Source: Phoronis australis
Lineage: Eukaryota; Animalia; Phoronida
Direction of reading: 5' to 3'
Assembly (NCBI GenBank): GCA_002633005.1
Contig: NMRA01000089.1
Span: 793,895 to 857,894 of the forward strand
Length of the DNA stretch: 64,000 nt
This document shows, piece by piece, positions 9,417 to 50,741 of the stretch. Position 1 is the stretch's first letter. Each line of letters opens with the position of its first letter. The translations under genes and the position numbers were made by a program. The notes under the pieces were generated by a model. That model had not been told where the DNA came from and ran no database searches. It saw only the letters and a program-made list of their open reading frames with translations.

Positions 9417-10176
9417 CAGGGGCTAGAAATAGAAGATTTTTTCACAAAAGTCAAATTTTGTCTTTTTGAAGGCCTTTTCAGTCAATCTCAAAAAATATAC
9501 TTATTCTAACAGGTATTTTGAACCTTTTCACTACCGAAAATTAGATTTCATAAGGTTATGGAACCTTCGATCATCAAAGAGTTTGAGCATTCAGCTAAAT
9601 ATCTTCAAAACTACAAAATTTAGTACATCTTTTTGAAAGCAGAGAGTCAGTAGAATCCTTTATCAATTTGTTGTTGACTGGTTCAAACAACTATGTTTTT
9701 TGTAAAGTTTAACAAAAAAAGAATCATGGTACAATCACAACAAAACAAAAAGTATCTTAAACACAATCAAATTTTATTTTCAACGTTCAAGATGAAACCT
9801 CAAAATCGTCATTACACTTTACAAGTTTTCACCACATTTTCATTTCATACATTCTTTATAAAAATTATACTCATACTTTTGATGGCCAATCATGCAAAAC
9901 AATTCCTAAAAACATTTCGATGAACAACTTGCACAGAGAATAATATCTGAAAGTTTCACACGAATCCGATCAGCCATTTCCGCGATGATGCTCCAAAGTT
10001 AGCCAATCTATAGGGCTGTCCTGGATTACCCATTTATCCACAATGCCGTAAACATCCATCAGACATATTTGCTGCCTGTTTTCGTGCCATTGGAATTTCA
10101 CGTTATTAGTGTTCAGTTGCTGCATGCCTTTACATTAGTTTTTTTTTTTGGCTGCATTACTCCATTCGTCTTTCCA

Positions 10177-22880: not shown

Positions 22881-23237
22881 AATGATGTGCTGCACCTGGC
22901 TTATCTTTCTACAAAATATCAATACTGCACCCCATAAAACTACAGCCTTGAAACTAGTTGCATATATCTGCAGCCTTAGGGTACATACAGTATGGTTGCC
23001 CTGTGACAATTACTGGACTGTTCATTTTTTATAAATAAAGCATTAGAGATGGGGTTTGACGGCTAAAGTTATGTTTCTGAGCAGAACAAACATTATACGA
23101 TCATGCTGTTTGTAAACCTCAACTTTTCTTTCAGAACTATGGAAAATACAGTAAATGGAGAATACATTTAGTGGTTGAAAGGTCACTAATTAATGGACTG
23201 AACTGAAGGTGAACTCAGCAAACTGTGAGAAAGCACG

Positions 23238-24273
23238 ATGACTCTGAAACTGAGTGTGTTTGTGGTCCTCTTTCTTTATGTTGTTGAGAGAATTGAGGGT
23301 GACGGTCATTCTTCATGCACCTCTGCAGTTGGCAACAACACCTGTCACATACATATCAATGAAATTTTTAGAAAAGCCAGTGGCGTCATGGTGGAGCTGT
23401 TTTACGACGGGCGCATGGCCTGGACTCCGACTGATTATTATATCCTGGCTCACGTGGTGGACCCGTTAGGCTTTGACTATACTGTGCGGTATTTAAAACG
23501 AATAAATTGTACATTCAACTCAAACGGTTTCTGCATTATGCACTTGGGAGATTCCCACGTCACCATGGATCAGTTGGTTGGTGAAGGAACAAAAGTGATC
23601 GCTTTGTATAAAGATATTACCAGTAAACATTGTGATATCAAGAAGGGATCTACGCTTAAGTATCCAGCTAGTTGTGGTCTAGAGGCTGTCATTTTGACAG
23701 ATGGAAGTAGTGGAAACATGACCCATTTAAAAACATTGTTTCACCATAATTCATCATTCATAAATCAGGAACGGTCGTTTCATAATGGTCTTTCTGTCCA
23801 GCGTTGCTTACAGCTTGGTAACTCTAATCAGTATGGTTACAACGTGCACACCGCCACGCCCATGTCTTTCAATAACTGTACTCTGCCTAATGTAACAATC
23901 AACGAATTTGATTTCAACGCACAGTTCCTTGAACTCCGTGGTATGCCGAATATGAGCCTACAAAACATTGTCCTAGTTCTATACTCCAGCCACTTTAACC
24001 ATGCTTACAAAACTATCAGCTTGGATCGCGATTGTATTGGCGCGAGTGGCTTTTTCGTGATTGGTTCAAGCAATGACACAGACAAAAAGATTGCTCATCG
24101 AGAATGGATGCAGGTGGGCAGTAATGCGGTTGCTCTCTATTTTGGTGATGAAGCGGACTTTCCGGAAGCTGTGGCGCCTGTAGATAAAGACCCCCGACTG
24201 ATTGATGCGTTAGTGTATGGTGAAACAACGGATGACACCGTCGCTACTACATTGATTTCCCTACTCATCAAAG
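23238..24273 (+). CDS. LTD-repeat protein exon 1 (signal peptide, repeat 1, most of repeat 2)
   Basis: MTLKLSVFVVLFLYVVERIEG...ISLLIK-G|gtttgt; acceptor tttcag ends at 23134. Confidence 0.88.
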
Positions 24274-27200
24274 GTTTGTCGCTTTCAGCGGGTCGTAGTG
24301 CATGTGTTTATATCAAAGAGTCTGCGCCAGTTCTTTAACAGTGTAACTTGGATGTACGTCTATTAATGTTCAGCGCCCTCGATGCCTTGATTTGGGGGCC
24401 AGATATCGGTTTCTTTCCCCATGTGAAATATGTTTTAAAATCACATGCAATTTCCTCATCGGGCCCAAAATTCTCCAATAATTAAAAGATGTCCGTTCTA
24501 GTTTGGGATCTTCTTTAACTCTCTCAATCCTTCTTACTGATAGCAACTGTAGGGGAGATTTTCACCTCACCAGAAAAGTATTCCCCTCTGAGAAGCCACA
24601 GGCATCTTTACCCTCAGCTGAGCGAGGGATCCTGATATTTATAAAACTGGTCTCAAATTGAGATTACAAGACTGGGCATTTGAAGGACTTACAAATTTTG
24701 CTTATTACTTGACCAAATGTGTCTTTTTGTTACAACTGCTGCCTTTAGCAATTATCAAAAGTGTCAGTTCTTCCCAAACATAGAAAATTGTTACTTTCTG
24801 AGCAAAGAACTCTTGTTGGGGTCATTCCTTACATTAATGGTTTGATAAACCTAAATAGTCTTTTTTTGGCAGAAGGTAGGATCAAATCAGCGTTAATGCA
24901 CAAATATTCATATTTAATTTCAATTTTATGCTACTACTTATGAATTATGTAGTTTTGCTTGGAACTGTGATACATACAAAAGAGTGTATTTTTTTGGTTG
25001 AGAAATGTAGACTTAATTATTACCTGTAGCACTCTGCAGGGAGCAGGTAGTGCCATAAGTAGAACTGTTTCAACAGTGGAGAATTCAGTAATTGTCTCAC
25101 GGCAAGAAAAATGTACATAGCCTAAGTCACATACTCTCATTGAAAATACACGGCTAGATCTTGCGAAATCCTGCTTTTCTAGTGAGACACTAGCATTATT
25201 GAACTTGACCCAGAAAGAAGCATTTTAGTCCAGACTAAATTGATCTGTTGCACAATTGTCGTAGTTCAATCTGTTGGTGGGATAACATTATATCAATGAT
25301 TGTATTTTTTCTGTTGCTAAATGATTGTCTAATTTGGTATATTATTTTTAGTAGCTAAGATTTGATTTGATTTGATTTTTGCTCCAGAAAGGGCTTTCTC
25401 GATGAGAAGAGCCGCATATTACATAACCATGAATTGAAATGTTTCAGGTCAATACCAGATTGAAAAAGACCCAAGGGACATCTCCACAGTTAGCCGATGT
25501 AATGATGTAGCTAAGCCACTAGATGTCTCCACTTATGGTTTGGCGTATCCCACGCCAGGTTGTGCGAATGACAAAAAATGCACTCCAGTGCAGGGTGATA
25601 AACAAAAGTCCCTTTCTGCCCAGCAGGATTTGGTGAGGATTTTACTTTTGTTTTTATGCCTATGCTTACTTTTTAAAGCAATTATGAGTTGGTTCTATAG
25701 TTGTGAGGAAGTCCAATGTTTGCAACAGTTTCAAAATGATTTTAGGTTATCGCAAGCCTTATTTAGTAGCCTCCATTCTAACTCGTACATAAAAAACTAA
25801 GCTTTGTCAACTAGTAAAAGTGTATATTTTCTGAAAGAAAAAAGACCAGGGAATATAAAAATATGTTTTGTATTTATATACCATTATTATTTTTATGTTA
25901 ACACCTCTTTGAAGTCGAACTTTCAATATTTAAGAAAGGTACATTCATAGCAAAATAACCCCTCGGTCAATTTTAATGAAAACTTTTTTTAAAGGATATC
26001 TCAAAAATGCTGTTAGGAATTTTCAATTAGTCTTTTCGTTTGGTTTCTATGACAAATCAACTCGCAAAGCATAAGGTATTTTTGTAAAAAATAGAAGTCG
26101 TATTCATCTTTGTTACACTATGCAAAAACTAGGCCTATGTATTGGAAATCTTATCAGTGTTTTTGAGATTGATGAATAAATGTTAAGTTTGGGAAGTTTC
26201 AGTGAAATCCATCAAGCCGTTTTCGAGAACTCATGTTCCTAAGTTCAAAATAAAGTCGATTTGTTGAAGCTGAGAATAAGCCGATTAAACTGGGACAAGT
26301 GAAAATCTCAAAGTCTTCGGTTGAATATTCGGTGGAAATTTGTTTTCGGTCAATATAACCTATACATGCTGTAACCAGTTATTTCAATGTTCACTCGCAA
26401 TGTCAGCTGAATTTGCAGTACTTAATTATCATTAAAACGTAACGTCCCTAGCCACAAGGTGGGATCAACTGTTTTTACTGTTGTTTGACCTACTTAAAAG
26501 TAGGTCCCTACTTAAAAGTAGGTCACAGTTCATTGTTACACACATAGTCTTTACACATCACATGCTGGGAGACTGATATGAAACAAAGTAAGAAATGGAT
26601 AACAAAATCGAGTCAGTGGTTAAAGCATGTCGTTAGCATGAGATGGAAACAGCGAAATGTCCATTTACTTATACTGAATTATGGAATTAGGGTGAGGATT
26701 AGTCTCTTCACAACTTGCTGTGTTCATGACCACAGAGGCGTGAGGTGACTCGTAGCATTCGTTTTCAGCAGTCGTTTTTTCGGTTTTCCCTAGCACCAAT
26801 CTTTCATGTAAGTACACCTCGTTGACTCAATATTATTGTGACTCCGTGTATGAAAGGATTGAGGGTACAAACAGAGCTGCTCTGTACCTGGCAGGAGATT
26901 CGATTTGAGTGACTGCCCTGTAACCTTTGACCTTGAATAAGTAGCAAACAAATATCCAGGTGGTTGTAAGGTTCCAAGGTGGTTCTGCTAAATCTTTTTT
27001 TCTCGCTATACAGTATATATTTTGTATTTGAAGTTGCCCGGGAGTGAAGATAAGGTATTTTGCTAGACACGTGAAACATGGTAAAAATGACCAATTTTTG
27101 TGAAAAAGGTTTGAGATAAGCTTAAGTAGAAAAATAATGCTAACTCATTTGTTTTTTACATGGGGATTTTTGAGGTTTTTGCACTTTTTTTCAATGGGTA

Positions 27201-30200
27201 TGTGCATTTAATAGTACTAGTCTTATTTAAAGTACTTAGTAATCCAAATGGCTGACTGTTTACTTTTCTACATTTATTCATTTGGATTGAAAAATTAAAT
27301 CTTATTATTTTTATTACTGACTACAGCTCATTATCAATGAAATTGATGCTCACTACATCCACAAAGCGAAGGATGAATTCATTGAAATTTATGACCAAGG
27401 TCAAGGGCTTATTGATCTAACAGACATCACTGTTGCGTTTTTCTACACTGCAACTAACAGGTAAGCAATAGAGAATATTCTAAGTGTCTTAATTAGTAGT
27501 CCCTGTGTTTTCCCCGCTGTTACGAGTAGTTCAATGTTTTCTTAACGCTTTGAAATCGCTTTCAACGGTGGTGAAAATGAAGTGTTACTGTTGACTGAAA
27601 ATTCGCTGTTTGGCTTCAAGTTTATAAATGTGTTCGTGAATAAAAGTTATGGCTATAATTAATTTTGCATTTCAGTTCTTACATAACGTATGACCTGAGT
27701 GGTTATAGGACAAACGAGCAAGGTTACTTCACCATTGCATCCTCGGGGGATTCAGCAGACTTAATTGTACCTATACGTTATCGCTACTTCCTGGATGAAC
27801 ACCTAATTACATTGTACAAAAGGAAATTCCGATATATGAAGGTACTACTTTTGTTTTTATTGTACCAAATAATTGTGGCAAGGGTTAAGTGCTCACAGAT
27901 AGCAAAGTTATGAAGGGTTTTTATTCACCTTGGAAAATAATTCGGCTGAAATAAATTTGGGCCCTGAATCTAGTCTTTTACTCGAAATCAAACTCACAAT
28001 TATTTTAACAATTTCTATTCTACTTGTGTAACTCGTATGCATAATCCATGTTGCACGCAGACCAATAGACACTTGTCTTGAGTTCACACAACATAGAACA
28101 AAAAATGGAATATGATTTCATGTTCAAAGATTAGTCACCTGGGCCCTGGTGTTCATTTAATGGTATATCATGTGAGATGTAGGCCTATTTTGACTGTTGA
28201 GTATTTTTAAGTCAAGTCACACTTTTTGAGTGCTAAATCGGAGACAGAATGATAAAACCATGGCCTGAGTGGTGTTCTTTTATTGTTAATTTGATTTATT
28301 TGAGTTTAAATTGTATGGTACTCTTAATTAATAATGGTGTATAGCCCTGTTTAATTCATAATTTATCAAACTATCACGTTTTTAAGTCTGGTCAGCACTA
28401 CCTGAAACTATTAAATTTCAGCTGACTACCACCAATTTACTGGACGCGGTCCTTTTCAAGAAGGGTGGTGAGCCGGACAACACTGCACTACTCAACTATC
28501 TTCTTGTACCCCCTGGACAACCTCAGTTGGTGGTCAGGCCCACGGGATTCATTTGTAAGTATATTGAAGATACACCTAACCATTGGACTTCCATGTGCCC
28601 ACATTTATTTGGGGACTAGCTTTTGGATGCAATCATAATTGCCTAGGGCAAAAAGGTTCCAGTTTGGAGCAGTCTCTGAAATTTGGGACACCGAAATTCA
28701 AAACTCAATTTTTTATTCTAAAGCTTGGGACATGGGTACTTTTGATGTTCATCATATTTCTCAAATATCAGATGCTGTATTTTGTTGCAGCAGAGTCGAA
28801 AGTAGTCTTAGCAATTCATATCTTTGTCAAAAGTAGCCACTGACGCTACATTGTGTGATACATCAAAATGAATGATTGTCGGTCATTGGCTTTTAAATTT
28901 GGGAGAGCCAATATTGCCCATTTCTAATCTTTGTTGCAAGCTCCAACCTTGAGCAATTAAAATAATTATTAACTGAAACTGTACTGCTCGTTCATCTGAA
29001 AAAGAATTACTGGAAATCTGGTCACTGTTGATTTTCTTATTATGTGAAAAATCTGCTTAATACCAAATTAGATAAAATGTCTTTTCAAATAAACGTACAT
29101 TGATCAAGCCGTATCTCCTTAACATTTTGCAGGATTTTTGTGAATTTTGGCAAATGTATTCCTGTGACTACAGATGACAACAACAAGTTACAGACTAATT
29201 CGACTACAACTGTGCGCCCTAGTGGGAATTTTATTCTGTTACATTTTGCCTCTGGAGTTACGAGATGGATTTTCATGAAATTTGGCAAATAGGTCTCTGT
29301 AAAGAAGATGACCATGCCTTACTATTTTCAGATGGATTTGACATATTCTGAACAATATGGTGGCCATTTTTAAAATTATAGATAACGTTTTTGGCATCTA
29401 CATCTATATGGCAAATTGAGAAGATTCTTAGGAAAATTGGCAGATGTGTTCCTGATAAGAAGAAGGGTTCTACACCTGTGGCGCTTCTTAGTGGCAATTT
29501 TTCATGTTTGCATTTGTATCGTTGGAGTTATTAACAATTTTTTTGGAAAATTTAGGGAATAGGTTTCTACCATGTGTTTTATTTTTCATACGGTTCGATG
29601 TAGTCTGCACCACCTAGTGGCCAGTTTTATTATTTAGAGTCCATTTTATTTTTGGCATCCCTCTCTTTATCTGCCAAAATGGCCAAAGAATCATTATTAA
29701 ACTTTAGTTAGCAGTGTGTTCCATAATGATTAGACCATGGTTGACATTTATTTTTAGATTGGTCTGACAGCTGTAGCGTCCCCTAGTGGTGATATTGTAT
29801 TTTTTGCAACCATGACTGTTAAGCTCATGATTCCTTTGCAGGATCTTTGTGAACTTTTGCAGTTGGTTTCCTGTAGATGTGCCTGATGACTGTCTACAAC
29901 TTTGGATGGCTCTGACTGCCGCTGTGCCCCCTAGTGGCAATTTTAGCTTTTACGTTTGCCTCTGTATCTTTGGAGTTCCTATTAAAGTGGATTTTCATGA
30001 AATTTGGGGGGTAGTTTTGTATTAGAGAGGTGACGATTCCTTCTCAATTTTGAGCAAGTTCTTTGACGTACTTTGCTCCATCTAATGGCCATTTTTATGG
30101 TACTGAAAAGACACCTGTAAAAACACACAGTTTGCAGTACAGTTGTGAGTGTATTTCAATGCTCTGTGTTGCTTATGTTCTTACAGCTCATGAAAAAACT

Positions 30201-33200
30201 AGTTGCTGTTTTTATTGGTATGCAGCCATATAGTGAGTTTCAGCAGAGGGCGCCACACACCGCTGTAGTGTTAGGTATACTGGTGAAATGTAATGTAATG
30301 TGTTGCCTTGTCTTTCAGCCAATACCAGCCTGTCCAGATGTTACTCTAATCAGGCCAGGCTTAACACAGCGTTCAGTGTTACCAGCATCAGAACCCCTGG
30401 AGGACCCAACCATTGTGAGCTGCCCCCAGTGGTGATTAGTGAGATTAATGTTCACAGCACACAGGGAAACAGCATGGATTTTGTGGAGCTCTCTTCTTTG
30501 GGAATCCCATTTTTCCCCCTAGATCGTGTCGTAGAGGTCCACTATAATGCTCTGCAACAGTACAATAGTATTTCTTGGTCTCAAGTACTTGTTGAGCAAA
30601 AAACAGATGCGAATGGATTCTTTGTAGTGGGCACTAGAACATCGCCAAACACATCTTTACAGATCAATAAAGATTTTATTGCGGTAAGTAGTTCTCGTAA
30701 GATTACTTGAACCAACTTGTACATTACAAGACATTGTTTCCCCATTATTACAAGTAATTGTGTTTCTAGCAACAATGATGGGTAATAATTATTATGATGA
30801 CAAAATTGTAATTACAGAATGACTCCCTTCAATTCCTTTTCATTCTCGATCTTAAGAAAAGACTACACTGACGATGCAGTTTCTTCCATTGTTATTAAAT
30901 CTATGGTCAGGTGCATAGAAAAAGTTAAACAAATTATTAATATTGTATATTTGAGTCACTTGATGGAGAAGCCTGTTTTAAACCATCAGGTCACAGGCTC
31001 CAGTAAAGCACTGTCTCTATTCAATCAGTATCACCTCCTTTGCCCACTGATGTTATGAGCTGTGTTTGATCACTTGCTATATGCCAAGTACCCTATTGTT
31101 ATGTTGTTCTGTCACGACCTTTACTATGATGTCTCACAACTCACTGAGGTCCCATTTCATTCTTGCTTTCGATGAATGTAGTGCACATTGGAAGTACTGT
31201 GGTCTAACAATTTTTCTATCGTTTGTTCCTTTAACGATGTCGCTTAAGGAGCTACTGCACAGATGCGATCCGCACACAAAAAGTATTTTTAGACAATACT
31301 AGAAATGCTTGAAGAATTTATCTAACAATCAATGTCAAATCATTTTTTAACAAAATCTGCATCAGAGAGACACTACTACCGAATTATAATATAATTATTA
31401 ATTCCATTCTTATGTTCTGTCATTTTAGAATGGACCCAGTGCTATTGCTCTATATTATGGCACAAGTACTAGCAGCCTGTTCCAGTTGAACGATAAAGTT
31501 CACAACCATAGTCTGATAGATGCTGTTTGTTATGGCACTAAGCTATTGGGTGGTTATGTTAGCAGACAAGTGTTGGAGACACTGACTCCAGGTCGTCAAC
31601 AGGTGAGATTTGAGCAGTGTAATCACTGCAGTTCTCGTCCACACGTTGATGAGGGGTGTTGATGTCTACTTGTAGAAAAGCCCTCGTACCCTGGCTGAAA
31701 TCTCAACTGTTCATTAGCTTTCAAACATACTTGAAAATATACCAATTCCAACTTATTAAGAACTTCTTGAAATGATGAAAGTTGTTGAAATTTGTGCTTT
31801 AAATGTGTTATTATTAAACCACAAATAATTCCTTTTTTATTTCTGGTCCTTTTTATATTAATATAAGTGGCCCTAACATTTCTGTTTTCATGTTTCCCAT
31901 TGGCTCTCTCGAGCTGGTTGTTTCTTTGGCAACTTGAGCAGATATTGAGCATTCAACAGCTTTGGTTTACTATGCAAAGCATGTTTGTATCAATGCCCAA
32001 TCATTCATAGCCATCTTGTCAAGCATTAAGAATTTTAGCTTTGCCCATCTTGAGAATGGACTGCAATGGAATTCTTGTGTTACAGATAAGTGTCCATTCT
32101 AGAACTGTATAAGTGCATCTTTGTGGAAATGAAAGTTATATAACGTTGCTTGGACTCACTGTGATGCCGATAACAGTCACATTATCTTGAGAACAAGTTT
32201 GGTACTGGTTATTCAGTAGAGAAATAGAGAAAACTGGTTCTCAAATTGTGGGATCCCTGAATTTAAGTGACTTTTACTGTGGTGCTTAATCATCCACTCA
32301 TGTAGTACACAAAACACAGTGTGCTATGCCAGTCTAGCTAGGGATCGAATTCTCGCCTTATCTGCATTGAATATCATCTCATTGTTTAAGAATCTAGAAT
32401 CCATTACTTTGATTCTGTAGGTGACAGAGCCCATAGGCCACTCTGTACGAGACGAGTCCATCAATAGATGTGAGACCGTGGACGGTGTCGTGTATCTGAT
32501 GGGGTCGCTGTCTGCTGGGAGTGAAAACGTTTGCAACATGACTCGGCCTACACTACCTCCCCCTAAAATGACGTTAGATCCACCAGGTCAGTAAAGTGTG
32601 GAGGAGTGTTGTGGGAAGGAGGAAGGACGGGCGGTGAAGGGAAATGGAGATTGATGAGGGATTGAGAGAAAAAGAAACTAATTGTATATTTTGTGTATTA
32701 GATTCATTTTATTGACGTTTCTGCCTCCTTTTATTTTGTACTGTAAGCTTGTCGAGTTGGTAGTTTTGTTTTTTAAATCGTAGCTCAACCAATAACGTAT
32801 GGTTTAATAATTTGTGAAGGATTTTAATTTATTTTGGTTTTATGCACAAACAAAAATATTGATGTTGTTTAATTAAGGAAAAGTTTCCTTAAATTAGTTT
32901 GTTTGTTTGTATTCAATTTATTACAGAGTTAATCATCAATGAAGTGGACAGCACTATACCTACACACCCAGAGGAAGCATTTATTGAACTCTACTCGGCG
33001 CGTACACCAAACTTTGGTTTAGATGGTTACACCCTTGTGTTCTATGATGCTGTTGACAGCCTATGTTACCTACTATTTGATCTGTCTGGGAGGAGGTAAC
33101 TGCATTTGTTGTGATGTCACTCTTGTGTGTGTGTGAGAATTTGCCTGAAGTTAGGTTTAACTCGTCACTAAATGGGACAGCAATATTGCGTTGGAGAAAA

Positions 33201-39200: not shown

Positions 39201-42200
39201 CCCCTCACTCAAAATCCTGGATCCACACCTGTGCAGAGCATTATTTTGTTTCAGAGAACTGGATGGGAAAGTCGTTTTTAGTATCTGTTAATAGGGCAAC
39301 CGGGTTTGGTATCCTTTTAACACCCACTCCCAGTTTGTAAGTCCTCGGCAGAGGAATACGGTTTGTCCAGTACTTCATGTCAAATCCAATTTGATGTCAA
39401 TTACATTTGTTCATCAGGTGCTCCTGGTACAAGACTGGATGGCTATTCGCTGGTTTTGTTCAATGGTCGCACGGAGGAGGCCTATTGGGTTAAGTCTCTT
39501 GATGGTTACAGAGTGAACAGTAATGGACTGTTCACTATTGGTTCATCTAAAGTTGACAATGTGGATGTTGCTTTCATGAACATGGTAGGTTATAACAAGT
39601 ACTGATAGAGTTTTAACCAAACACTTCGTTTGTGACAATTCAAATATCCCCTTTGACTCAATCACTTGTATCTGAATGACTGTTGTGTGATTTGATTTAA
39701 AACTCGGTATTCACAGAGCCTGGACACGGGAATCTTTCCTAAAAAATACTAGACTTCCTGCAGTTGGTCTTGGCTCGTAGTGGCAATTTTTTGCATCCTC
39801 GGCCGTATCTTTGAAATTGCTCATAGGATCTTCGTGTAGTGTCATTAACTGTATTCTTATGAATGTGACAACAAATAATGTTAACTTCTGTTGGACAGCT
39901 CAGACTACCACTGTATCTCATAAAGGCAATTTTATTTTTTACATTTGCCTCTATATCTTCAAAGTTTCTGTATGAATTTTTATGAAATTTTGCAGTTAGG
40001 TTTCTGGTAGGGAGAGAGCAAGTCCTTCCCATTTTCAAATGGGTTCAACATATTCTGCACTAACTATTGGCCATTTTTACTGTACTTACGGTAAAGTCGC
40101 GTGATTTTCGGACGGCCCGCCATTTTCGACCAAGAATAAATATTTCCGAAATGAGTTTTTCATAGTCCACGAAATTCGTACAAGGTCCAAAAACTGTTTT
40201 TCAAAGATCCTCGAATTTCGGACATTGTCATAAACATCGGAATTTTGTCCCGCGACTTTCGGACAAGGAAAATTTTAGAAACGCTAATTTGGGATCGACG
40301 CAACTCCCGTGTCACTAAAGCGTTCAACCGACGGATGATTACTACTGTATAAGGCTTGAGTCCGAGAATCGGTATAACGGGTTTGTAATTTTTACCGTTA
40401 CTCGATTGTCTTGCGTTTAGCTTGTGTTTGGCGCTTTAGCTATGAAAAGAATCACCGAGTTCCGCGCACGAAAATTTCTGATGAAAATACAAATAGGAAA
40501 TACACCGAAGGCTGCAACTTTTCGTTGTAGCGTAACATGTGCTCTGGTTTAAATAGGCCGTGCTGTTCGACTCCCGACTGTGACATTGAACATGCACGCC
40601 TGACATCAACTTGCGTGTTTACGAAACGTTTTTAATTTAAAACGTCCTGGCCTTTGCAAATGCCCAACTATCGCCGGACAATAAAGTTTTGCTGCCACTT
40701 ACCTGCATCCCGGCGAACGATTGAAATCTTCGTGCAGCCGTTCTGGGCTTGCTTAATAATTTTGAATGGGACAGTTAGCAAGGAATGAGCATCCACTGAC
40801 TAACATTTAGACGTGCTTCTGACAACGCAATTTTTGGGTTGAAACGAAAATTTTTCATTAAAAATCTGTTTGCAGTTCAAACGTCTTTCGTTTTTCAGTG
40901 TCTTCTTGGTAGTGCTCATTCGTGTAATGTGTTAAGCAGTGTAAGGCCCAGCACTCAGAACGGCGCGTTGGCGCAGTGCCACACACACAATTGCTACAGG
41001 GACACTGCATCCCTGCCTTATGTTGTGTAAGTGCCTGTACTATAACACATATCAAAAACTAATATACATCCACGTAACCACGCTTCACTACCCTTACAAA
41101 TTCTCTATCTCTGATAAGCATCGCAGATGCAAGAATATCGCTAAAGAAGCTAGTGTGATCGTGTGCTTCGCTTGCAATACTTGACCATACGTCTCGAAGT
41201 CTTCAGACAAGCTTGCTCGTGAGATTCTCACCCTTGCGGCCCTGGACGAAGACTAGTGTAGAGTTCAGTAGCTGTCTTGGGAATAGAAAAATCTAGCCAA
41301 AATCACGTTTTCAACTGAAAATACACAATATGTCACGTAATTTCATGAATTCTTGCTTTTTAGTGAAGGCCTAGCGTTACGAGATTTACCCCTATGTAGA
41401 CCTAAAAAAGATTGAATATGCGGCGACCTAATTTTGCTTGCTCATCCACTGGTCTTTGTACTTGTGGTCTTGTTAATTCGCGCCTTGTACCGTCTGAGGT
41501 ACAACACCCTGGACTCCATGGTGTCCCGAGATTAAGATGAATCCCGACAACTGAGGACACCTGGACATGGGCGGCGCACCATAGTGGACTGGGGCGGGCT
41601 ATAACCTCCCACTTTTTTCAGTGCTACGCCACGCATGGTCCGGCAATAGGCGATGCACCACAGGGGTCTGAGGGGGGCTTTAGCCCCCCACTTTTTTCAG
41701 TGCTGCGCCGCCCAAGCGGTACCCTGTGGCACTCGATCTCTGTCTGCGGCGACCATAAGAAAATACTCCAATCATTTCCAAAAATGATGAGTCAGTTGAA
41801 TCAGATTTGATAGTCATTGCTTCTTGCGGTCCTAGGGGTAGGCTAACAAGAATACAGGACCTGCAGTCCGATGCAACGAGCCTGGGACCTTATAGGTGTT
41901 TCCTACCTGGAGTTCCATATCTACTTTCCACAGGGCCTGGTCTTCTTGTCCATGTCACCGCCTTCAGTTGATAGTTTTGAGACAAAAAAAGAAACGTGAT
42001 CTTAAACTACAGACTATGATTTTTGTATTACTTAAGATAGTTTTAGAGGCATTTTAGCTGTAACTGTGTTTAATTGTGTTTGATTCGAAAGAGATGACTG
42101 TTACATTGCTAATTATTATTGTTCTATTTTTACCCGAGGTGATGCCTTACGTACAGCAAGGGTAAATAATTTTGGGAAGTATTACCAGTGATTTCCGTAT

Positions 42201-45200
42201 ATAAGTTCGGGAAACCAAACGTCTATGTAAAAATACACCAGGGCCTATACTCGGCAATGTCGAATACACGAACACAGTATAAATACTGTATCTCACCCTA
42301 ATTATATTCTAGTGGGAATAGCATTATTTTCAGATTTCAAGCATGCATTTTTATTCTCAGATATGCATCCAGGTATATTTTAGGGAAAAAATTTAAGATA
42401 CGCAAATTGGGCATATATTCTGCTGGACTTACATACGGAAATCTACGGGGGATCTTCTTAAACCTGTAAACCATGAAAATTTCATTGAGACAGTTTTGTT
42501 CTACTAACATGTTCAACTAACATTCCGTTCATGCAAGTCGGTCAGTACGTTCGCATTTAAGGCGTTATTGCAACAGGTAAGTGTTGTTTTGATTTTTGTT
42601 TGGTGCTTCCATATTTTATTTTGTTATGTATTCCTGTCTTCAGATAGTCACTGTTATTCTTCAACAACATTTCTGTACTTATAATGAGACTTCAGTAAAC
42701 TCGCGACTGTTCATACTTTAAATGTTAGCAGAAGTGTGTAGTGTCCATCAGCAGAGACCTGTGGGAAGAACTATTTTCCGTAACTGTAGCAAATATATGA
42801 CGCAATGAAATGAAAACGGTCGACATAGATGAATTGTAATTGGTTAAATGTATATTAAGAAAGAAAATTAAGTATATAAATAGTAGACCGGTTCTTGAAT
42901 TGCCTGGTTTACGTCCTTCATGAGTTCACCTGTCCCAAATTGAGTGCTTTCGTTTTTCTTTTCAGGTCGTCACTAGTCGATTCTTCTAACAGTCGTGATC
43001 TGCCCAGTAGCCTATTGTATCAACGTGCGCAACAACGGTCTTGGCAGGGGGTTGCACCTAGCAGACTCCCTTAGAATTAGTGGCACAAAATCGACATTGG
43101 TGTGCAGCAGGAGGCCGAGGGGGGGAGGGGTGGCGGCGTAAATTAGTAGTGACTGAGGGAGACTGAGCTGCGCGAAATTGGTGATGACCGTGGACGGCGC
43201 TAAACTGGTGACGACCAGAAGAAACGGCCCTGTTATCTTCCTCGCAGATTATCAGAAAATGCTAACGATTATCAGTTTCATTTCATCCACAAACAGATTT
43301 CACAAGTCAGAGTTTTCACTGTGGTTGAAAACGTAAGCGAACCCAGATGTGTTAGGTCACCTCAGTTGCATGAAGACGCGCCAGTGTATCACTGAGTTAA
43401 TATCGGGCGTTTCAAAGGCTGTGGATGAGAAAGGTTTTAATTGTAAAAAAACGGTTGGGTGAATTTGATGTTGGTAGCATTTGAAATTGCATTTGCTTTC
43501 TAGTCAACGCCCTTATATATACAATATGTTAGTTAATCGTGTCTTCAGCCGCGCAGCACTGTACTAGTCGACGCATTCCCATCGTTTGCAGTAGGCCTAA
43601 ACATGTAGAACGACAGCGCTTCTTCAACAATTCAGACGACTACCAGGACGACAAATGGGGATCACGAGTAGATGAGAAACTACTCGTTTTATTATCATGA
43701 TTGTCTTTTTAATCTGTTTTGGGTAATTGTTCAATCAAAGTTTTTATGTTGAAACTGAGCTTTCAGATAATATGGAAATAAACGTGTCAGAGTTAACTTG
43801 CGTTTCGGTTTGTAACCAGCAGACAATGCATGGATACGTTTAACAAACATAAATATATGCTATGTTCTTGTCATTGTTCGTCACTTTCTTCACTGAACTC
43901 GTTCCCACATCCATTACTGTTACGTTTAATGCAAAATTCGTTAAAATTGAGAAAGCGCATGTTTTGATGGTCGGGAACCCTCTTTGTGCGCCGAATACGC
44001 AAGTCCAGCTTTTTATTGGGAAACCATGCGTTGACAGCGCAAACTCGACATTTTTTATTGAGAAAACGCATTTTTACAAAAGAGAATCCGTTGTCTGTAA
44101 CGTTTCATGTGCGTCAACAACGCAAACCAGACCCACTCATTGAAAAGCCCATATTTGTCACCAGGAAGACTCTTCACAACGCAGCCCGGTGAGATAGCGC
44201 AGTTTTGAAAAGATTCCGTCTCTTGCCGAGAACGATTTTTGAGCATCGGCATTGCAAGCCGAATATTTCATATTGAGAAAGCACATCTTTGAAAAGAAGA
44301 ACCAACACTTGTTGGGAACGGTCTTTGTGCGTCGACGACGCGCATTTCTTATTGGGAAAGCCAGATTTTCAAAAATTAATCGCTCAGACCATTTGAGTCT
44401 CATTTACCTGCAATTATACTGCTATCAAATGACCGAGCCAGCATTGTTGATACTGCGACGCTCATCGAAATAATGTACACCCACGAAATTCGGACACTAG
44501 CGGAAACCCAAATTTGGAGGTCCGCCAAATTCGGACACCACAAAATGATATTTCGCGAGATTCGTCCAAGAATGAATTTTTTCTATTGGAATTAATTTTC
44601 AGTGTCCGAAAATCACGCGACTTTACCGTACTAACACCCCTTGAAGCATACTGTTTGCGGTGTAGTCATAGGTGTATTTAAACCCTTTGTGTCGCTCTTG
44701 TTAATTTGTATTAGCCCACATATTTACATGTGGGTACATATTGCTGTCGTCTCTGTCTGGGCGTCCGGCGTCTGCAGCTGTATCTCGTAAACCCCTCACA
44801 GGATCTTGTTGAGATTTGGAAGGTGTGTTCCTACGAAGCTGACGACGGATAACAACGAATTTCGGATGAATCTGACTACATGTGTGACCCCTTTTGGCAA
44901 TTTTATTTTTTATTTATGTTTACCTCTGTATCTTCAGAGGTCCTCAACCGATTTTTATAACATTTGACAGTTAGGCACCTATCAGTGAGATGACGCTATC
45001 CTCCCGTTTTCGGATGGATTCGAGGTATTTTTCGCCATCTAATGGCCATTATTTTTACTGTTTTCGAGGTTTTTGGCGTCTGCCACTCTGTCAACCATAC
45101 CACTTTAAGGATGATTTTGAAAATTGGCATAAAAAATAGGCTCCTATGTTGAAGAAGAGGGCTGACGATGATTTTCCGACAACTTTGGTTACTGTGGTGC

Positions 45201-48200
45201 CTCCTAGTGGCTGTTTTGTTTGTTTTTGCGCCCATGGCTTTATCGCCTAAACGCTCTACAGGATCTTCACTAAATTTAGTAAAATGTATGAAGTTGACAA
45301 CAGACATTGATGACTTTCGGTCTGATTGGACTACCGGTGTGCCCCCAAGTGGTAATTTAGTTTTTTATGTCTACCTCTATCTTCAAAGGTCCTAATCATT
45401 TCTCCATAAAATTTGACAGATAGGCATCTATTAGTGAGATGACGCTATCTGGATTGATTCATGTTATTTTGCGCCACCTAGTGGCCATTTTTACTGTTAT
45501 CGACTACAGTGGCACCTCCCAGTGGCAGTTTTGTTTTAGTTACGCCCATGGCTGTATCTCTCGAGCTGTCTTCAGGATCTTTTGAAATTTAGCAAGTTTA
45601 CAATGGACAGCGACGACTTTCAGACGAATCCGACAAATGTTGTGCCCCACTAGTGGCAATTTAATTTTTTTTTTCTGTTTTCCTCTGTTTCTCCAATTCA
45701 ATCTCCTTGACAGATTTTCATGAAATTTGGAAAATAGCTTTCTATTGAAACGATGACATGTTCCTGTTGTTTTTGGATGGATTCAACATATTTTGTGTCA
45801 TATAGTGGCCATTCTTCTGTTTCGTAGTCTGTTTTTGCGTCTGCCCCTCTATCAAATCACTCAGTATGATTGTGAAAATTTCCTTACATGTTCTTATTGT
45901 GAACAGGACAGTTGGCGACGATTTTCCGACGACTTCGATTACAGTGGTGCCCCCTAGTGGCAGTAATGTTTTTTGCGCCAATAGCCCCCTATTGGCTTTT
46001 TCATTTTTTCCATTTTCCTGGTTCTCTGAAGTTCCTTGACAGACTTTTATATTTGATAGATAGCTTTTTATTAAAAAAGCGATAACAAGTTCCCGTTTTT
46101 GGATGGATTCAACTTATTTTGTGTCATCTAGTGGTCATTTCTGTGGTACAAATAAACACCCCAAGAAGCACACTGTGTACGTTGCCTTCGTGGGCGCATT
46201 TCAACGTTCCGCGTTGCTCTTGTCTAAAAAGCCATTCTTCAAGGCTATCGTAACACCACAATTTACCGCGGTTGTTTTTACCCTAGGGCCTTGTGCAAAA
46301 TGGCATCGATGCTGTTACATTATTCGACGGCAGGGGTCTTTCATTGTCTACAAACATGCGTTTTGACAGCACTGGCCTGAGGGATGCAGTCTTTTATACT
46401 AAGTACCCTAGTGACGCTGGTGCCGAAGGATTCTTTGAAAGTGTTATGAAGTCCACCAGTAACGACATCATTATCGAGGATCAAGGGTTAGTGGATGTGG
46501 ATTGATCATATTTCGATAATGTTTCTCTGTAGCTTTCTAATAAGTGAACTTACTGTCACTGTTGCTAGGACGTACACAGCTTGGTGTCCAGTATCATGCT
46601 GTTCTCATAGTACGCAGTGCAGGGCTAATTTCTTGTGGTTGGTTGGGAAACACATTTTGACCTAGGGCGTTATGAAATTCGTGATTACCATGGAAAATAG
46701 TGGGGGTAAATTCGGTCGATTCTTTCCACATATCTGTGCCTCAGTGATGCTTGCTTTCTTATAGGTGTGTAGCAGCTGTATGTGGCACAAGTATTAGTAA
46801 CTCTGCTTTGCATAGTATATGTAGTCATCAGTTATTTTGTGGTATAATCTCTCAATTTTAGAACACAATACGACCGACATGTGAAATTTTGTTTTCTCAG
46901 GTGTGTAGGTCTCAATGAGAACAAATAAATCAGTTTGAAATTAACTTTCAATTGGAAAAGAAAACCTAGTTGCTACTTTGCCTTTAAGTCTGATGTCAGG
47001 GTTATTCAACCAGCAACCACACTGCTACCAATTTGTGTTATCAACACTGAATGCCGTGTATTTTCTAAGTTTGTTGGATTCTGCATTGCTAATAAGAATG
47101 TTTCCTCCGAAATATCCCGTTATTCCATGCTCACCATTTCAGATTCCGTGATGGCACCGAGAGTATTAACCGTTGTTCCTGCGACACGGCTCTCAAGTCT
47201 CGGTGTTTCATTCTCTCACAACCAACGCCTAACCAGCCCAATGCATGTCCCGTCTCTACATTATCCGTGCCCTTCCAAATGAGGTTGACCGATGCCAAGT
47301 GTTCTAGATGGCAGATTGGTGGTAGGGACAACCAGACAAAGCTGTTCCTTCTGAGGGATCTGGTCTCCACCACTGTCAACAAGAAGTGTAATTGTGGTTT
47401 CTCAGCAGATTACATTGCAAGTGAGCTTTCAGTTGTAATCATTTATTTAAAATATTGAACTTTTCAAAGTACAAAATGTTGTGATTGAAAACATGAAAAG
47501 GGACTGGACTATCATCCACACACACATTTCTGCACACGATCTCGCAGTTTCTCATCATGCGCACGATCTCACAGTATCTCAGTCTTCAAACCACCTGCAC
47601 TTTCCAATAATAAATATATTTTTTACAGGCTAAATTTGTCGCTGTTCAGTAGTCCCTGACAAAATTTAAAAAATCATTTATTAACACTCAATTTTTGCTC
47701 TACACTTATAAATAAACATCAGAATGTCATGTAGCAGTTCTAGTTAGGTAAGTATACCAAAAATGACTTCTACAGGAGAGGATGTCAACCAGGACACTTG
47801 TCTATAACATCTCATCTATTTTACGTGACCATTTTGCTTTAGAGCAAAGTAGTCATGATGCTGTTGTTGACAAGTGTGCTGGTCAACATCCTCTCCTATA
47901 AAACAATCATTTTTGGTATAGTAACTAATTATTTTATCGTGATTGCTGTAATCGTTGTAGTAAATGTTTTTGATCTTAGATTTCAGTATTATCCGCTGTG
48001 GTAGTATCACATTTGAAGGCTACTTGCAAGCTATCAATAAGGAACAGCAGTTAAAGATTATGAAAGGCTTCTCAGAATTCATAAACTCAACCCAGTTAAT
48101 CACGATTGATTCGGAAACATTCGCAATCGATAGGAAGTGTCACATGACGTGCTCGCCATCCAATGAAAAGCACCGTAAGTGGAACTGTTGTTTTGCTTAG

Positions 48201-49989
48201 AGGTTTCTGCATTCAGAGTAAAACGCATGTTTTTGTTAATTAAAAAATAGTAAATGTTAGTTGCAATAAGCTTGTTTTAAATGCCGCACATGTAAGACTC
48301 GAGGTCAAATTCTCGATGGCAGTACTTGTGCTGTCCAATGTTTAGTGTTTAAAGATAGTTTTATGCTGATTAAGGTCTATTTTCTACTTTAAGATTTCAA
48401 GTTCTTGTCAATAAATCTAAAGCTGCAATTTCTTGCTGTCTGAAAAAACCCAAACTTTCGATGTAGACCACTTGCCTGATTATGAAGCAGGTTTAGACTT
48501 GATGTTTGTTGGTCAGATTGTGAGTGATGTGTGCGCTTGTGAAGAACTGACAGATCGTTATTGCTTGTGACCAAGCTAAACATGGCTTTGCTGTACTGAT
48601 CATGCAATGCACTGGTAGTAATATTCCTGGCAAAAGTAGACTGCTTCTGTGACTTAACACTAGGTGGAGTGCTAATCAGTGCTTTGGTTGAGATGCTTTT
48701 GGCAAATATAGGACAACACATTGGCAGCTAAAGGACAACAGGGGTAAAGCCATGTTATTGAACCTGGTCTGGAGCAATCATCAATTATCAGTCCTTCACA
48801 AGCCCAGGAATCTTTCCATATTTGAGTTACATGCACGCTGCGACCAATTTTAATGTGGTCAGTTGTCTAAGTCAAAACTTCACTGAAGGTGGGTTGCATG
48901 ACAGCTTTGCAAAAGTGAGCCTGGTTAACTATGAGACTGTCGTTCATTTTTTTCAGCATCTCTGGGTATGGTTATAGGAGCCAGTATTGGCTCTGCTCTG
49001 GGACTGGGTGTTGTCATATTTATTGCTGTGTACTGTGTCAGAAGGCGTAAGGACAGAGAGTAAGTTTTATCAAGTATTTACTCTATTCAACCAAATTCGT
49101 CTCAAAGTCCCTCTCTTAAAAACTGAGTGGTACGTTACCAGTGACTTCCAGATTTTTATTCTAACTGGATTTGCTAATTGTGTCTCGTGATGGTGCATGC
49201 TTTGAGAAAGACCACTCTACTGATTACTTATTTCCACATGTATAATAGTTGGTTTATACATACTTCCCTCATCTCAAGGTGTCTGGCATCCACCTGGTGG
49301 TAATTTTAACTCCATTAATGTTGCTCCCTTTAGTGGGCTTGTTTGATTCAGAAGTAATAATACACTGAGAAAAAACATTAGGTTAGAGTAATTCCTGGGT
49401 AGTTTCATTAATGCAAAAATCTGTCTAAGCCAGTGTGATTATGATGTTCACTCAGTGTTGCAAGTTCTAACACTGTTGTAAATGTCCACAGTTTTTCAAA
49501 ATATTGTGTGGTTGTAGCTATGTTACATAACTTGAACCTGGAAAAGCTACATGTCCTTTATGAATAGAATTAGAAATAAATTTTCACTTGTCTCCCATAT
49601 TGTTTCCTAAAGGCGTGAGATTTGCCCTGTTGTTGTGTTGTAACAAACCTTTGAACCAACTTTGTAGCCACCTGCTATAATTATTTTACCTCCTCAATCT
49701 TACTATGCTCTAATACGATCCCATCTGCTAGGACAACCCTCGTAATCCTGCCAGTGAGAAAAGAGTTAAAGATGTCAACTGGCCATTCTGGTTAATTTAT
49801 CTGATCCGTGTTGTTTGACATACTCTCTACCCGATATCTCATACTTGCAGGCATTTCCGTTTGAAGATCCTGGATGAAGATGATGATGGTATACCCGATT
49901 TATCTCTGAGTTCCCATGACGACAGAGCTTCATCTGTGACCAACTTCACAAACCCCACATACTCTAGACTCACAAATGCTGACCTCTGA
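23238..49989 (+). CDS. Uncharacterised type I transmembrane protein with 7 tandem lamin-tail-like (LTD) repeats, SEA-like module and FxNPxY tail; 20 coding exons, ~1547 aa
   Basis: Exons: 23238-24273, 25448-25632, 27327-27460, 27676-27841, 28422-28554, 30319-30683, 31429-31602, 32421-32586, 32927-33095, 33494-33630, 34856-35071, 36782-37074, 37546-37692, 38660-38900, 39418-39584, 46287-46486, 47143-47420, 47980-48174, 48957-49059, 49851-49989. All introns are GT-AG, all phases are compatible, and the total is 4644 nt (1548 codons) with no internal stop. Confidence 0.9.
25448..25632 (+). CDS. LTD-repeat protein exon 2
   Basis: GQYQIEKDPRDISTVSRC...YPTPGCANDKKC...QQDL|gtgagg. Confidence 0.85.
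27327..27460 (+). CDS. LTD-repeat protein exon 3 (start of repeat 3)
   Basis: LIINEIDAHYIHKAKDEFIEIYDQGQGLIDLTDITVAFFYTATN|gtaagc; missed by the ORF track. Confidence 0.88.
27676..27841 (+). CDS. LTD-repeat protein exon 4
   Basis: SYITYDLSGYRTNEQGYFTIAS...FRYMK|gtacta. Confidence 0.85.
28422..28554 (+). CDS. LTD-repeat protein exon 5
   Basis: LTTTNLLDAVLFKKGGEPDNTALLNYLLVPPGQPQLVVRPTGFI|gtaagt. Confidence 0.87.
29090..30179 (+). mobile_element. Helentron-associated (HINE/DINE-1-like) element with internal tandem array
   Basis: Repeated gtgc(c)ccctagtggcaatttt and ttttcatgaaatttgg units; the 3' end caatgctctgtgttgcttatgtt is homologous to 46202-46223. Confidence 0.6.
30319..30683 (+). CDS. 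LTD-repeat protein exon 6 (end of repeat 3, start of repeat 4)
   Basis: NTSLSRC...TPGGPNHCELPPVVISEIN...DFVEL...TDANGFFVVG...DFIA|gtaagt. Confidence 0.88.
31429..31602 (+). CDS. LTD-repeat protein exon 7
   Basis: NGPSAIALYYG...LIDAVCYG...LTPGRQQ|gtgaga. Confidence 0.88.
32421..32586 (+). CDS. LTD-repeat protein exon 8
   Basis: VTEPIGHSVRDESINRC...SAGSENVCNMTRPTLPPPKMTLDPP|gtcagt. Confidence 0.85.
32927..33095 (+). CDS. LTD-repeat protein exon 9 (start of repeat 5)
   Basis: ELIINEVDS...AFIELYS...LDGYTLVFYD...FDLSGR|gtaact. Confidence 0.88.
33494..33630 (+). CDS. LTD-repeat protein exon 10
   Basis: RTNSNGYFVIGGS...DAIVLYYAPARWFVK|gtattg. Confidence 0.85.
34238..34820 (+). repeat. Tandem repeat with (CA)n microsatellite spacers, containing a 290-N assembly gap (34387-34676)
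   Basis: The unit (CA)n-catat.ccttggaataatattggcatt...atgtttactgtttctcagctttggtca is present on both sides of the gap. Confidence 0.85.
34856..35071 (+). CDS. LTD-repeat protein exon 11
   Basis: GKTKIMLQNIVDYV...LYPGQ...SISRC...PPTP|gtctgt. Confidence 0.85.
35488..36060. mobile_element. Tourist-like PIF/Harbinger MITE (573 bp)
   Basis: ~40-bp TIR GGGCTGTTCCAGYAAAATCTGTRTGGGAGGGGGGGAA with a TAA target-site duplication at 35485-87 and 36061-63. Confidence 0.85.
36782..37074 (+). CDS. LTD-repeat protein exon 12 (start of repeat 6)
   Basis: GKKNNCTRQQVLINEVS...DFVELFDGGAGRTPLTGLTVVFF...DLTGYQTNIKGYY...TIYN|gtaaga. Confidence 0.87.
37546..37692 (+). CDS. LTD-repeat protein exon 13
   Basis: AHGDEFPVDSVANTTDLVDAVIF...LLPGQKILTADFQ|gtatgt. 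Confidence 0.87.
38660..38900 (+). CDS. LTD-repeat protein exon 14 (end of repeat 6, start of repeat 7)
   Basis: QGTKSLRRCC...PTPGLPNNC...VVINEIDSDQHGPDTHEFIELK|gtatat. Confidence 0.88.
39070..39231. mobile_element. hAT-like MITE (second, truncated copy at 57265-57385)
   Basis: Ends CAGTGGCGCATTTAGG / CCTGGATCCACACCTG. The interior is nearly identical to 57265-57385 (ggggcaaggagg.catg...cccctaaaatt...gaatgtctgacgg(g)caaaatcctggct). No clear TSD. Confidence 0.6.
39418..39584 (+). CDS. LTD-repeat protein exon 15
   Basis: GAPGTRLDGYSLVLFNG...LDGYRVNSNGLFTIGS...FMNM|gtaggt. Confidence 0.88.
39757..40086 (+). repeat. Helentron-array family copy interrupted by the 4.5-kb TIR element (resumes at 44631-44702)
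   Basis: Joining the flanks gives ggccatttttactgtact[TA]ctaacaccccttgaagcatactgtttgc, which matches intact family ends at ~30088-30140 and ~46133-46180. Confidence 0.65.
40089..44628. mobile_element. 4.54-kb non-autonomous Tc1/mariner-pogo-like DNA transposon
   Basis: Perfect 25-bp TIR CGGTAAAGTCGCGTGATTTTCGGAC, TA duplicated at 40087-88 and 44629-30, and subterminal TTCGGACA repeats (~40217, 40258, 44489, 44530). No intact transposase ORF. Confidence 0.88.
44710..46223 (+). mobile_element. Apparently complete Helentron-associated (HINE/DINE-1-like) element
   Basis: 5' ATTAGCCCACAT...ATGTGGG palindrome, then a GTCY-like microsatellite, an internal tandem array, a 3' subterminal GTGGGC (46190), a hairpin CAACG..CGTTG (46202-46216) and a CTCTTGT end. 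Confidence 0.7.
46287..46486 (+). CDS. LTD-repeat protein exon 16
   Basis: GLVQNGIDAVTLF...LRDAVFY...IIEDQ|gttagt. Confidence 0.87.
47143..47420 (+). CDS. LTD-repeat protein exon 17 (end of repeat 7, juxtamembrane module)
   Basis: FRDGTESINRCSC...PTPNQPNAC...KKCNCGFSADYIA|gtgagc. Confidence 0.85.
47980..48174 (+). CDS. LTD-repeat protein exon 18
   Basis: NFSIIRCGSITFEGYLQAIN...KCHMTCSPSNEKH|gtaagt. Confidence 0.8.
48957..49059 (+). CDS. LTD-repeat protein exon 19 (transmembrane helix)
   Basis: PSLGMVIGASIGSALGLGVVIFIAVYCV followed by the basic stop-transfer sequence RRRKDR|gtaagt. Confidence 0.87.
49851..49989 (+). CDS. LTD-repeat protein exon 20 (cytoplasmic tail)
   Basis: EHFRLKILDEDDDGIPDLSLSSHDDRASSVTNFTNPTYSRLTNADL*. 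Confidence 0.85.
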
Positions 49990-50741
49990 GGTCATTTTTA
50001 GATGAAGACCAAGATCGTTCCCTTGTCTGCAAAATCAGTGTTTGCGGCACTTAGAACTAAAAGTTGTTAAATGAAGTTGTGAAGATTTTTCTCGCGGGAA
50101 TGTCTCAGTCATTATTTGCAGCTTCTTTTTTCTGTGAGTTAATCAAAAGTATTTTAAACCAGGTTTTAACATGTTATTAAATACCATCTGCCACTACATT
50201 AATATGTGAATCTCTATCAGAAAATTATTCAGTAAGCCTCATCAATCTTCAAAAGTTTGAGGTGAGCTTGAAAATTTCTTTCAAAGTTTGCCTAGTGGGT
50301 TAGTGGAACTAATTCTTCAGGCAGTTTAGCGACGGTTGTGAGAAAGGACTGGCCATCTTGAACTATGGGATCTAGTATATTGCGCCACTTGGACGGAGTG
50401 TCGCAGCTGTTCAGTAATTTATCTCTCGGGGGAGATAATAGTCGTACATTATCATGCGATGTGGTCAGTGGAGAGTCAATTTCCAAAACAGGGTCAGATT
50501 AGTTAGACTAGGAAATCTAGTGAAGTCTGTACTAAGTGATGCCAAGTTCTGTTTTGTTCATAAGATTTACATGAAGTGGTGTCAACTGTGAGGCATGTTA
50601 TCCCTTTCTCTTATGGGCAGAGGCAACATATAGTGCTTAGCTTTGCCCAACTGTTGCTTGTTGTATGTAAGTACAACAATTGAACACCATGAGGTTGTTG
50701 CTAATGATATGCTTCAGTCATTTCTTGTTTCACTGAATGCG

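Follow-up and report, generated by a model that had tools for sequence, protein, structure and literature searches.

DNA binding has been proposed for the bacterial lamin-tail domain (LTD) (PMC4486849), external LTDs have been predicted to bind DNA or polysaccharide (bioRxiv 2025.01.14.632903), and LTDs occur in DNA-degradation loci (PMC8289736). BT_1938, a DUF4876 protein, has been put forward as the lid that binds substrate on a TonB uptake transporter (bioRxiv 2023.03.17.533168), and DUF4876 loci are induced by iron limitation (PMC10434189). Here we describe a 20-exon gene in a 64,000-nucleotide (nt) stretch of contig NMRA01000089.1 of the phoronid Phoronis australis (this whole stretch is called the window), whose product consists of a predicted signal peptide, seven repeats of about 180 amino acids (aa) resembling the bacterial module, a predicted SEA domain, one transmembrane (TM) helix and a 52-aa tail, and which is probably an uptake receptor. 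To our knowledge, an extracellular lamin-tail module is not known from named animal receptor families.

The joined exons give 4,644 nt and a frame of 1,547 aa closed by a single stop at its end, each of the 19 introns is GT-AG and compatible in phase, and an in-frame stop stands immediately 5' of the ATG at 23238. In three stranded RNA runs carrying this species' label, from each of which roughly one-fifth was read, reads over the exon bins have a single orientation at low depth, and splice joints fall at the predicted bases of intron 9 and of introns 11-19 (9/9 in the latter stretch), that is, at 10 of the 19 introns; in the contig run X4 only repeats were covered. The gene is spliced and expressed, and we infer one full-length transcript of the 20 exons that the first-pass annotation had assembled from the letters alone, the short reads showing 10 of its 19 joints. 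Intron 10 contains a gap of 290 N (34388-34677) lying between CA repeats with near-duplicate flanks on either side; a hidden exon within it is unlikely, because repeat 5 aligns gap-free. A splice-acceptor-like site 103 nt 5' of the initiating ATG precedes an upstream open reading frame (ORF) of 10 codons (23135-23171), and the transcript probably begins with a non-coding exon located upstream of 23135. Stranded RNA coverage runs at least 700 nt beyond the stop (49990-50700), representing the 3' untranslated region.

The seven repeats begin at I-[NS]-E motifs (aa 40, 221, 410, 591, 790, 973 and 1168), which match all seven coordinates of the first-pass annotation, and a profile built from 65 repeats of other animals finds exactly seven domains in the window protein. 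Repeats 2 to 7 (R2-R7) score 117-150 bits in this profile, and R1 reaches 29.3 bits, where none of 200 shuffles of R1 exceeds 2.2. Identity among the seven is 17-33%, and R2-R7 are 24-36% identical over the full ~180 aa (R1, 19-23%) to the bacterial module, which often stands at the head of secreted ExeM/NucH-type nucleases. Five polar positions (E, E, D, R and N) show 93-100% conservation in 126 animal and 120 sampled non-animal (bacterial) repeats, and a closing Cys pair is conserved at 94-97% in the animal repeats and at about 75% in the non-animal ones. Since intron positions vary from repeat to repeat, the array would be older than its introns. Pfam LTD (PF00932) spans only the first part of the repeat, having 109 positions against a module of ~180 aa; searched on single exons of the window it matches 3 of 12 pieces at 12-17.5 bits, below the 34.3-bit gathering cut-off, which is exceeded by all six orthologues scanned (68-312 bits).

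Structure models are in line with this assignment and widen it. A model of R1 and two-thirds of R2 (mean predicted local distance difference test score, pLDDT, 80) aligns in R1 with BT_1938 (PDB 4q1z; Z 9.0, root-mean-square deviation [rmsd] 3.7, 165 residues) and in its R2 part with the lamin B1 tail (Z 8.9, rmsd 2.9, 99 residues). The last repeat of the orthologue from the brachiopod Lingula, modelled at pLDDT 91, matches 4q1z over 179 residues (Z 13.5, rmsd 3.2) and lamin B1 at Z 7.7. Foldseek returned only unspecific sandwiches for the window R1-R2 model and was uninformative; for the Lingula repeat its top six rows are lamin tails with probabilities of 0.89-1.0, but at E > 0.001. An Atlas query with repeat 2 retrieved only bacterial or unassigned clusters, and the single match of a PDB search by sequence (E 0.8) was rejected. 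Each repeat is thus predicted to be a lamin-tail sandwich with a C-terminal extension of about 70 aa, and, judged from the models, the closest solved fold to the whole repeat is that of Bacteroides BT_1938. The earlier description of the repeat as an LTD is supported by these models, with the correction that the module, at ~180 aa, exceeds the Pfam LTD.

Outside the repeats, hydropathy and reading frame agree with the signal peptide (predicted), single TM helix and 52-aa tail noted in the first-pass annotation, and orthologues likewise start with a hydrophobic leader. The juxtamembrane module that it had recorded is present as well, its likely identity having been missed. The C-terminal modules of the orthologues from amphioxus and sea star are homologous to it (E 7e-18 to 2e-9). 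The Lingula module is modelled as a beta-alpha-beta-beta-alpha-beta fold with pLDDT >90 over most of its length, and its top three structural matches are SEA domains of MUC16 (rmsd 2.9-3.4, ~100 residues aligned) with Z values of 8.0-8.3, near the tool's caution level and obtained for the Lingula model, not for the window's own sequence; SorCS2, Gpr126 and PCDH15 follow. Pfam SEA gave no match in the 12 window pieces or six orthologues, and we regard the module as a predicted SEA domain. Glycine and serine followed by hydrophobic residues occur in the beta2-beta3 loop of 9/9 invertebrate bilaterian orthologues, 0/2 sponge and 0/6 vertebrate sequences compared; SEA self-cleavage is known at GSVVV in this loop (PMC6954182), and such cleavage is possible in the window protein at G1410/S1411.

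The tail contains an FxNPxY motif. Of 16 invertebrate tails in the family, nine, ranging from sponge to amphioxus, carry NPxY, where shuffles predict 0.08; eight of these nine have F at -2, and two further tails carry FDN[VL]xY. In vertebrate tails (116 sequences, from which 15 were left out for having no TM helix or no tail), YxxΦ occurs in 100 of 101 (29.9 expected) and NPxY in none of the 101. A tyrosine sorting signal was thus retained while its type changed.

Table 1. Positions in the window of the gene and the parts of its product (R, repeat; aa numbering from the start codon).
Feature	Position	Strand	Basis or remark
Whole coding span, 20 exons	23238..49989	+	open frame, GT-AG introns, 10/19 joints in RNA
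Exons 1-10	23238-24273, 25448-25632, 27327-27460, 27676-27841, 28422-28554, 30319-30683, 31429-31602, 32421-32586, 32927-33095, 33494-33630	+	
Exons 11-20	34856-35071, 36782-37074, 37546-37692, 38660-38900, 39418-39584, 46287-46486, 47143-47420, 47980-48174, 48957-49059, 49851-49989	+	
Predicted signal peptide, aa 1-21	23238..23300	+	hydropathy peak; cleavage site judged by eye
R1 (aa 37-215), most divergent	23346..23882	+	profile 29.3 bits; structural match 4q1z
R2 (aa 218-390), exons 1-2	23889..25581	+	profile; first part matches lamin B1 tail
R3 (aa 408-585), exons 3-6	27327..30419	+	alignment, profile
R4 (aa 588-770), exons 6-8, then Pro/Thr-rich linker	30426..32537	+	alignment, profile
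R5 (aa 788-967), exons 9-12	32929..36801	+	alignment, profile
R6 (aa 970-1140), exons 12-14, then Ser/Thr/Pro-rich linker	36808..38758	+	alignment, profile
R7 (aa 1165-1346), exons 14-17	38831..47251	+	alignment, profile
Predicted SEA domain, aa ~1349-1460, exons 17-18	47258..48152	+	homology to C-terminal module of orthologues
GSIT (aa 1410-1413), at position of SEA self-cleavage motif	48000..48011	+	comparison with orthologues; loop from Lingula model
Single TM helix, aa ~1470-1495, exon 19	48962..49039	+	hydropathy up to 2.3
FTNPTY (aa 1534-1539), FxNPxY sorting motif, overlaps YSRL (YxxΦ)	49945..49962	+	52-aa tail

The protein belongs to a family found from sponges to vertebrates. A search of 7,994 candidates with the repeat profile identified 2,174 proteins at E<=1e-5 (120 of these listed), and a search of cluster representatives identified 4,364 at E<=0.001; among the 150 representatives listed, 20 were judged animal-type on sequence features, with species named for 16. 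Named taxa include sponges (Corticium, Oscarella and Sycon), Lingula, echinoderms, Ptychodera, Saccoglossus, amphioxus, a frog and a gecko, and no cnidarian, insect, nematode or choanoflagellate is among the named matches listed. Of the 292 matches of a vertebrate-seeded search, the 120 listed comprise fishes, coelacanth, lungfish, amphibians, reptiles, birds, platypus and echidna, the orthologue being labelled si:ch211-183d21.1 in fishes (zebrafish) and MGC145260 in amphibians (Xenopus). No marsupial or placental is among these 120, and because fish scoring below the monotremes are listed, this suggests that the family was lost in marsupials and placentals. The closest of 21 proteins compared is Lingula anatina LOC106176960 (P0272; 31.7% identity over 1,534 aa). 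Repeat number ranges from 4 to 12 across the family, and a second C-x-C module is present in the tetrapod, lungfish and coelacanth sequences compared. Paralogues exist in amphioxus and sea star, and the listed vertebrate matches look like one conserved orthologue per species. Two sponge paralogues from Oscarella (P0137 and P0389) are without NPxY; P0137 is also without the SEA-like module and carries, before six repeats, a Cys-rich N-terminal domain, which we take to resemble the Frizzled cysteine-rich domain. An orthologue model from Zootoca (P0285) includes fibronectin type III and other Pfam domains and is probably a read-through gene model.

In databases the members are named 'uncharacterized', 'hypothetical' or 'LTD domain-containing', with the exception of 'glycerol-3-phosphate dehydrogenase' (P0283) and 'XPB' (P0328), which we rejected as annotation slips, only PF00932 being found in both. 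A description of the family was not found in the literature searched; most subscription papers and supplements lay outside that search, so expression tables may list the gene. The parts consulted of PMC6745481, PMC11431876, PMC11083954 and bioRxiv 2024.01.21.574862 give no account of this family, and the zebrafish and Xenopus orthologue names occur in two papers, in one of them as a table row, the other being PMC3098391. On the sequences compared, the family is an unstudied one that extends from sponges to platypus, and the orthologues found are not characterised receptors. With uncharacterised orthologues, repeats that model as the LTD sandwich and 10 of 19 joints read in RNA, the first-pass proposal kept its footing.

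We propose, with a probability of roughly 0.6, that the protein is a multivalent endocytic and recycling receptor. Displayed at the cell surface, it would bind extracellular cargo at several sites through its seven lamin-tail-type repeats, its FxNPxY tail would be bound by PTB or FERM adaptors, and it would be internalised by clathrin endocytosis through this tail and then recycled. PTB/FERM adaptors of the Dab2, ARH and SNX17 type bind NPxY. The variable repeat number fits an avidity array and so supports the multivalent part of the proposal, and the tyrosine sorting signal kept from sponge to vertebrates supports the uptake part. If this mechanism is correct, our leading guess for the ligand, and a tentative one, is a polyanion outside the cell held via divalent cations, namely nucleic acid such as DNA or a comparable polymer of phosphate; a protein is possible albeit on the unlikely side, a glycan or microbial polymer is unlikely, and a metal complex is improbable. 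It can further be speculated that this receptor family is as old as the animals, is built on an accessory module of secreted bacterial nucleases freed of the enzyme, serves from sponges to egg-laying mammals to internalise nucleic acid or a comparable polyanion from outside the cell, and disappeared in marsupials and placentals, a combination that we consider doubtful.

The bacterial carriers, in which the module sits on secreted proteins, also count for the proposal, as do BT_1938, the closest solved fold and a putative lid of an uptake transporter, and the lack of a catalytic domain in the animal proteins scanned. An exon 1 query gave four matches among 1,992 candidates, every one with a type IX secretion system (T9SS) sorting tail. 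Across 80 bacterial genome loci from seven named phyla (53 of the 80 in Bacteroidota), which were found with a query biased to nuclease-type proteins and are rich in Aquimarina, an EEP-type SDHx[PG] motif is present in 71 of 82 repeat-bearing ORFs, and 24 of 27 ORFs picked across phyla match an ExeM/NucH nuclease at E<=1e-6, eight above the curated cut-off. Other common partners in 108 scanned non-animal representatives are immunoglobulin-like, PKD and DUF11 domains, with Big_5 stalk domains also present, and in the neighbourhoods of the 80 loci no neighbour family (families not annotated) recurs in more than four genera. Scans of animal proteins against Pfam (six proteins) and NCBIfam (seven) yielded no catalytic domain. 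A nuclease identity was rejected, as NF033681 (EEP) has no match in six orthologues or exon 1; NF033680 matches only with its N-terminal LTD part, in three of seven proteins.

Several observations weigh against the uptake receptor or its suggested ligand, the query bias of the 80 loci among them. In the less redundant set the nuclease link is weaker, a nuclease being present in only 36 of 130 non-animal cluster representatives (45 with a looser motif), many of which are partial sequences. ExeM without its LTD has near wild-type plate activity and is slower in vitro (PMC6085458), and in Xds without the LTD nuclease activity and localisation are nearly unchanged (PMC6746945). The repeats are mostly acidic (R2-R7, isoelectric points of 4.5-6.1; net charge of -14 to -26 for each Ptychodera repeat), which disfavours direct electrostatic DNA binding, so that any attachment to DNA would depend on bridging cations. 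NPxY is absent from 7 of the 16 invertebrate tails, and the motif is also used in integrin- and APP-type signalling. Finally, in the only functional result found for the family, the transcript of the zebrafish orthologue ranks within the 50 most strongly depleted in microglia/macrophages of the retina (log2 fold change -10.3; PMC6423051), which counts against a phagocyte (scavenger) role.

One alternative is an innate pattern-recognition receptor that engages the surfaces of microbes or the polymers of biofilms in phagocytosis. It would accord with a multivalent ectodomain of variable repeat number, with the paralogues of amphioxus and sea star and with a module shared with surface proteins of marine bacteria; strong depletion of the zebrafish orthologue in mpeg1+ microglia and macrophages, and one orthologue per species among the listed vertebrate matches where an expanded immune family would be expected, make it improbable. 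Expression of the zebrafish gene in non-macrophage retinal cells (PMC6423051) would agree with an adhesion or mechanosensing receptor, in which the repeats form a long spacer or adhere homophilically, the ectodomain is shed at a SEA joint that can be cleaved or responds to force, and NPxY leads to cytoskeletal or signalling adaptors and not to uptake. The resemblance of the membrane-proximal fold to MUC16, Gpr126, SorCS2 and PCDH15, the GS motif in invertebrate bilaterian orthologues and the abundance of immunoglobulin-like, PKD and Big_5 stalk domains in bacterial carriers all speak for it. However, the tails are short, the vertebrate motif is a YxxΦ near the end, and the GS motif is missing from the two sponge and six vertebrate sequences compared, so that we hold this alternative to be unlikely. 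A YxxΦ near the tail end is typical of AP-adaptor sorting.

A receptor that acts like the DUF4876 lid and captures a metal or its chelate as a nutrient, for example an iron complex, is suggested by BT_1938 as the top structural match for both the window and Lingula models, by the iron-limitation response of DUF4876 loci (PMC10434189) and by the near-invariant polar residues shared by animal and bacterial repeats. Yet identity to BT_1938 is only 9-12%, likeness of fold does not demonstrate a function, the conserved residues may have a structural role, and none of the recurring neighbours at the 80 loci was identified as a TonB receptor; we regard this explanation as very improbable.

As to origin, all three trees gather the sampled bacterial repeats into a single group separate from the animal repeats, and the 24 bacterial repeats, a sample limited to top matches, make up one side of a branch (SH-aLRT 99). 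When the trees are left free and four ExeM-type LTDs serve as outgroup, the bacterial group falls inside the animal repeats; animal monophyly is not rejected (approximately unbiased test, p-AU 0.776, with six long rows left out and the bacterial sample again being top matches). The likeness to the bacterial module is not proof of bacterial origin, and the trees give no direction of transfer.

The surroundings of the gene contain further elements. In intron 15 a 4.5-kb element (40087-44630) with perfect 27-nt terminal inverted repeats starting TA makes up most of this long intron, has RNA reads on both strands and is likely a DNA transposon. Introns 5 and 15 also hold copies of an abundant family of transcribed repeats (29100-30160 and 44800-46100), at which read depth rises to as much as 130-fold through reads from other loci. 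Upstream, at ~3018-9422 on the minus strand, is a sulfatase gene in at least four pieces with Pfam Sulfatase and Sulfatase_C, which we take to be steryl-sulfatase/arylsulfatase-like. An assembly or contamination artefact was rejected in view of the 19 introns, the RNA joints, the animal orthologues and this multi-piece neighbour.

Large conserved cell-surface receptor families without a description are rare, and the LTD-repeat family combines an extracellular module not known from named animal receptors with a sorting signal kept since sponges. Orthologues in zebrafish, Xenopus and birds such as duck make knockouts and uptake assays feasible now, and the animal family offers a route to what bacterial lamin-tail domains bind, a matter left open by the ExeM and Xds studies. 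Should the apparent absence from therians be confirmed, it may be the reason that the family escaped notice, and it would indicate a function given up by marsupials and placentals.

Compared with known systems, the window protein shares repeats, SEA-like module, TM helix and tyrosine motif with its animal relatives (Lingula LOC106176960, zebrafish si:ch211-183d21.1 and Xenopus MGC145260), but has seven repeats where Lingula has nine, Ptychodera 12 and vertebrates, with their YxxΦ tails, four. The bacterial extended-LTD module of ExeM/NucH-like and T9SS-secreted nucleases aligns over its whole length and also occurs in tandem arrays, although its carriers often have a nuclease and a secretion tail, whereas the animal protein has no nuclease and ends in SEA domain, TM helix and sorting tail. 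The N-terminal ~120 aa of the repeats superpose on the tail of lamin B1 (Z 7.7-8.9), but unlike the tails of lamin A/C and B1 (PF00932; 13-15% identity) the window repeats are extracellular, tandem and extended by ~70 aa closed by the conserved Cys pair. BT_1938, the best match over the whole repeat by structure, is a bacterial lipoprotein with no match by sequence. SorCS2, MUC16/MUC1, Gpr126 and PCDH15 (MAD12) share the membrane-proximal SEA-type fold, while Vps10p, mucin, GAIN/7TM or cadherin parts were not found in six orthologues searched against Pfam. With the low-density lipoprotein receptor (LDLR) family, to which the first-pass annotation had likened the layout, the protein shares the type I arrangement, tandem acidic modules and a cytoplasmic FxNPxY (FTNPTY), and the likeness goes no further: no LA, EGF or YWTD modules were found in the 12 window pieces or six orthologues, the seven repeats and SEA account for the entire ectodomain with a SEA stalk in place of those modules, and membership was rejected for want of LDLR class A repeats or EGF/YWTD propellers. 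The window protein would work like a known kind of receptor, yet it lies outside the LDLR family and uses a different module.

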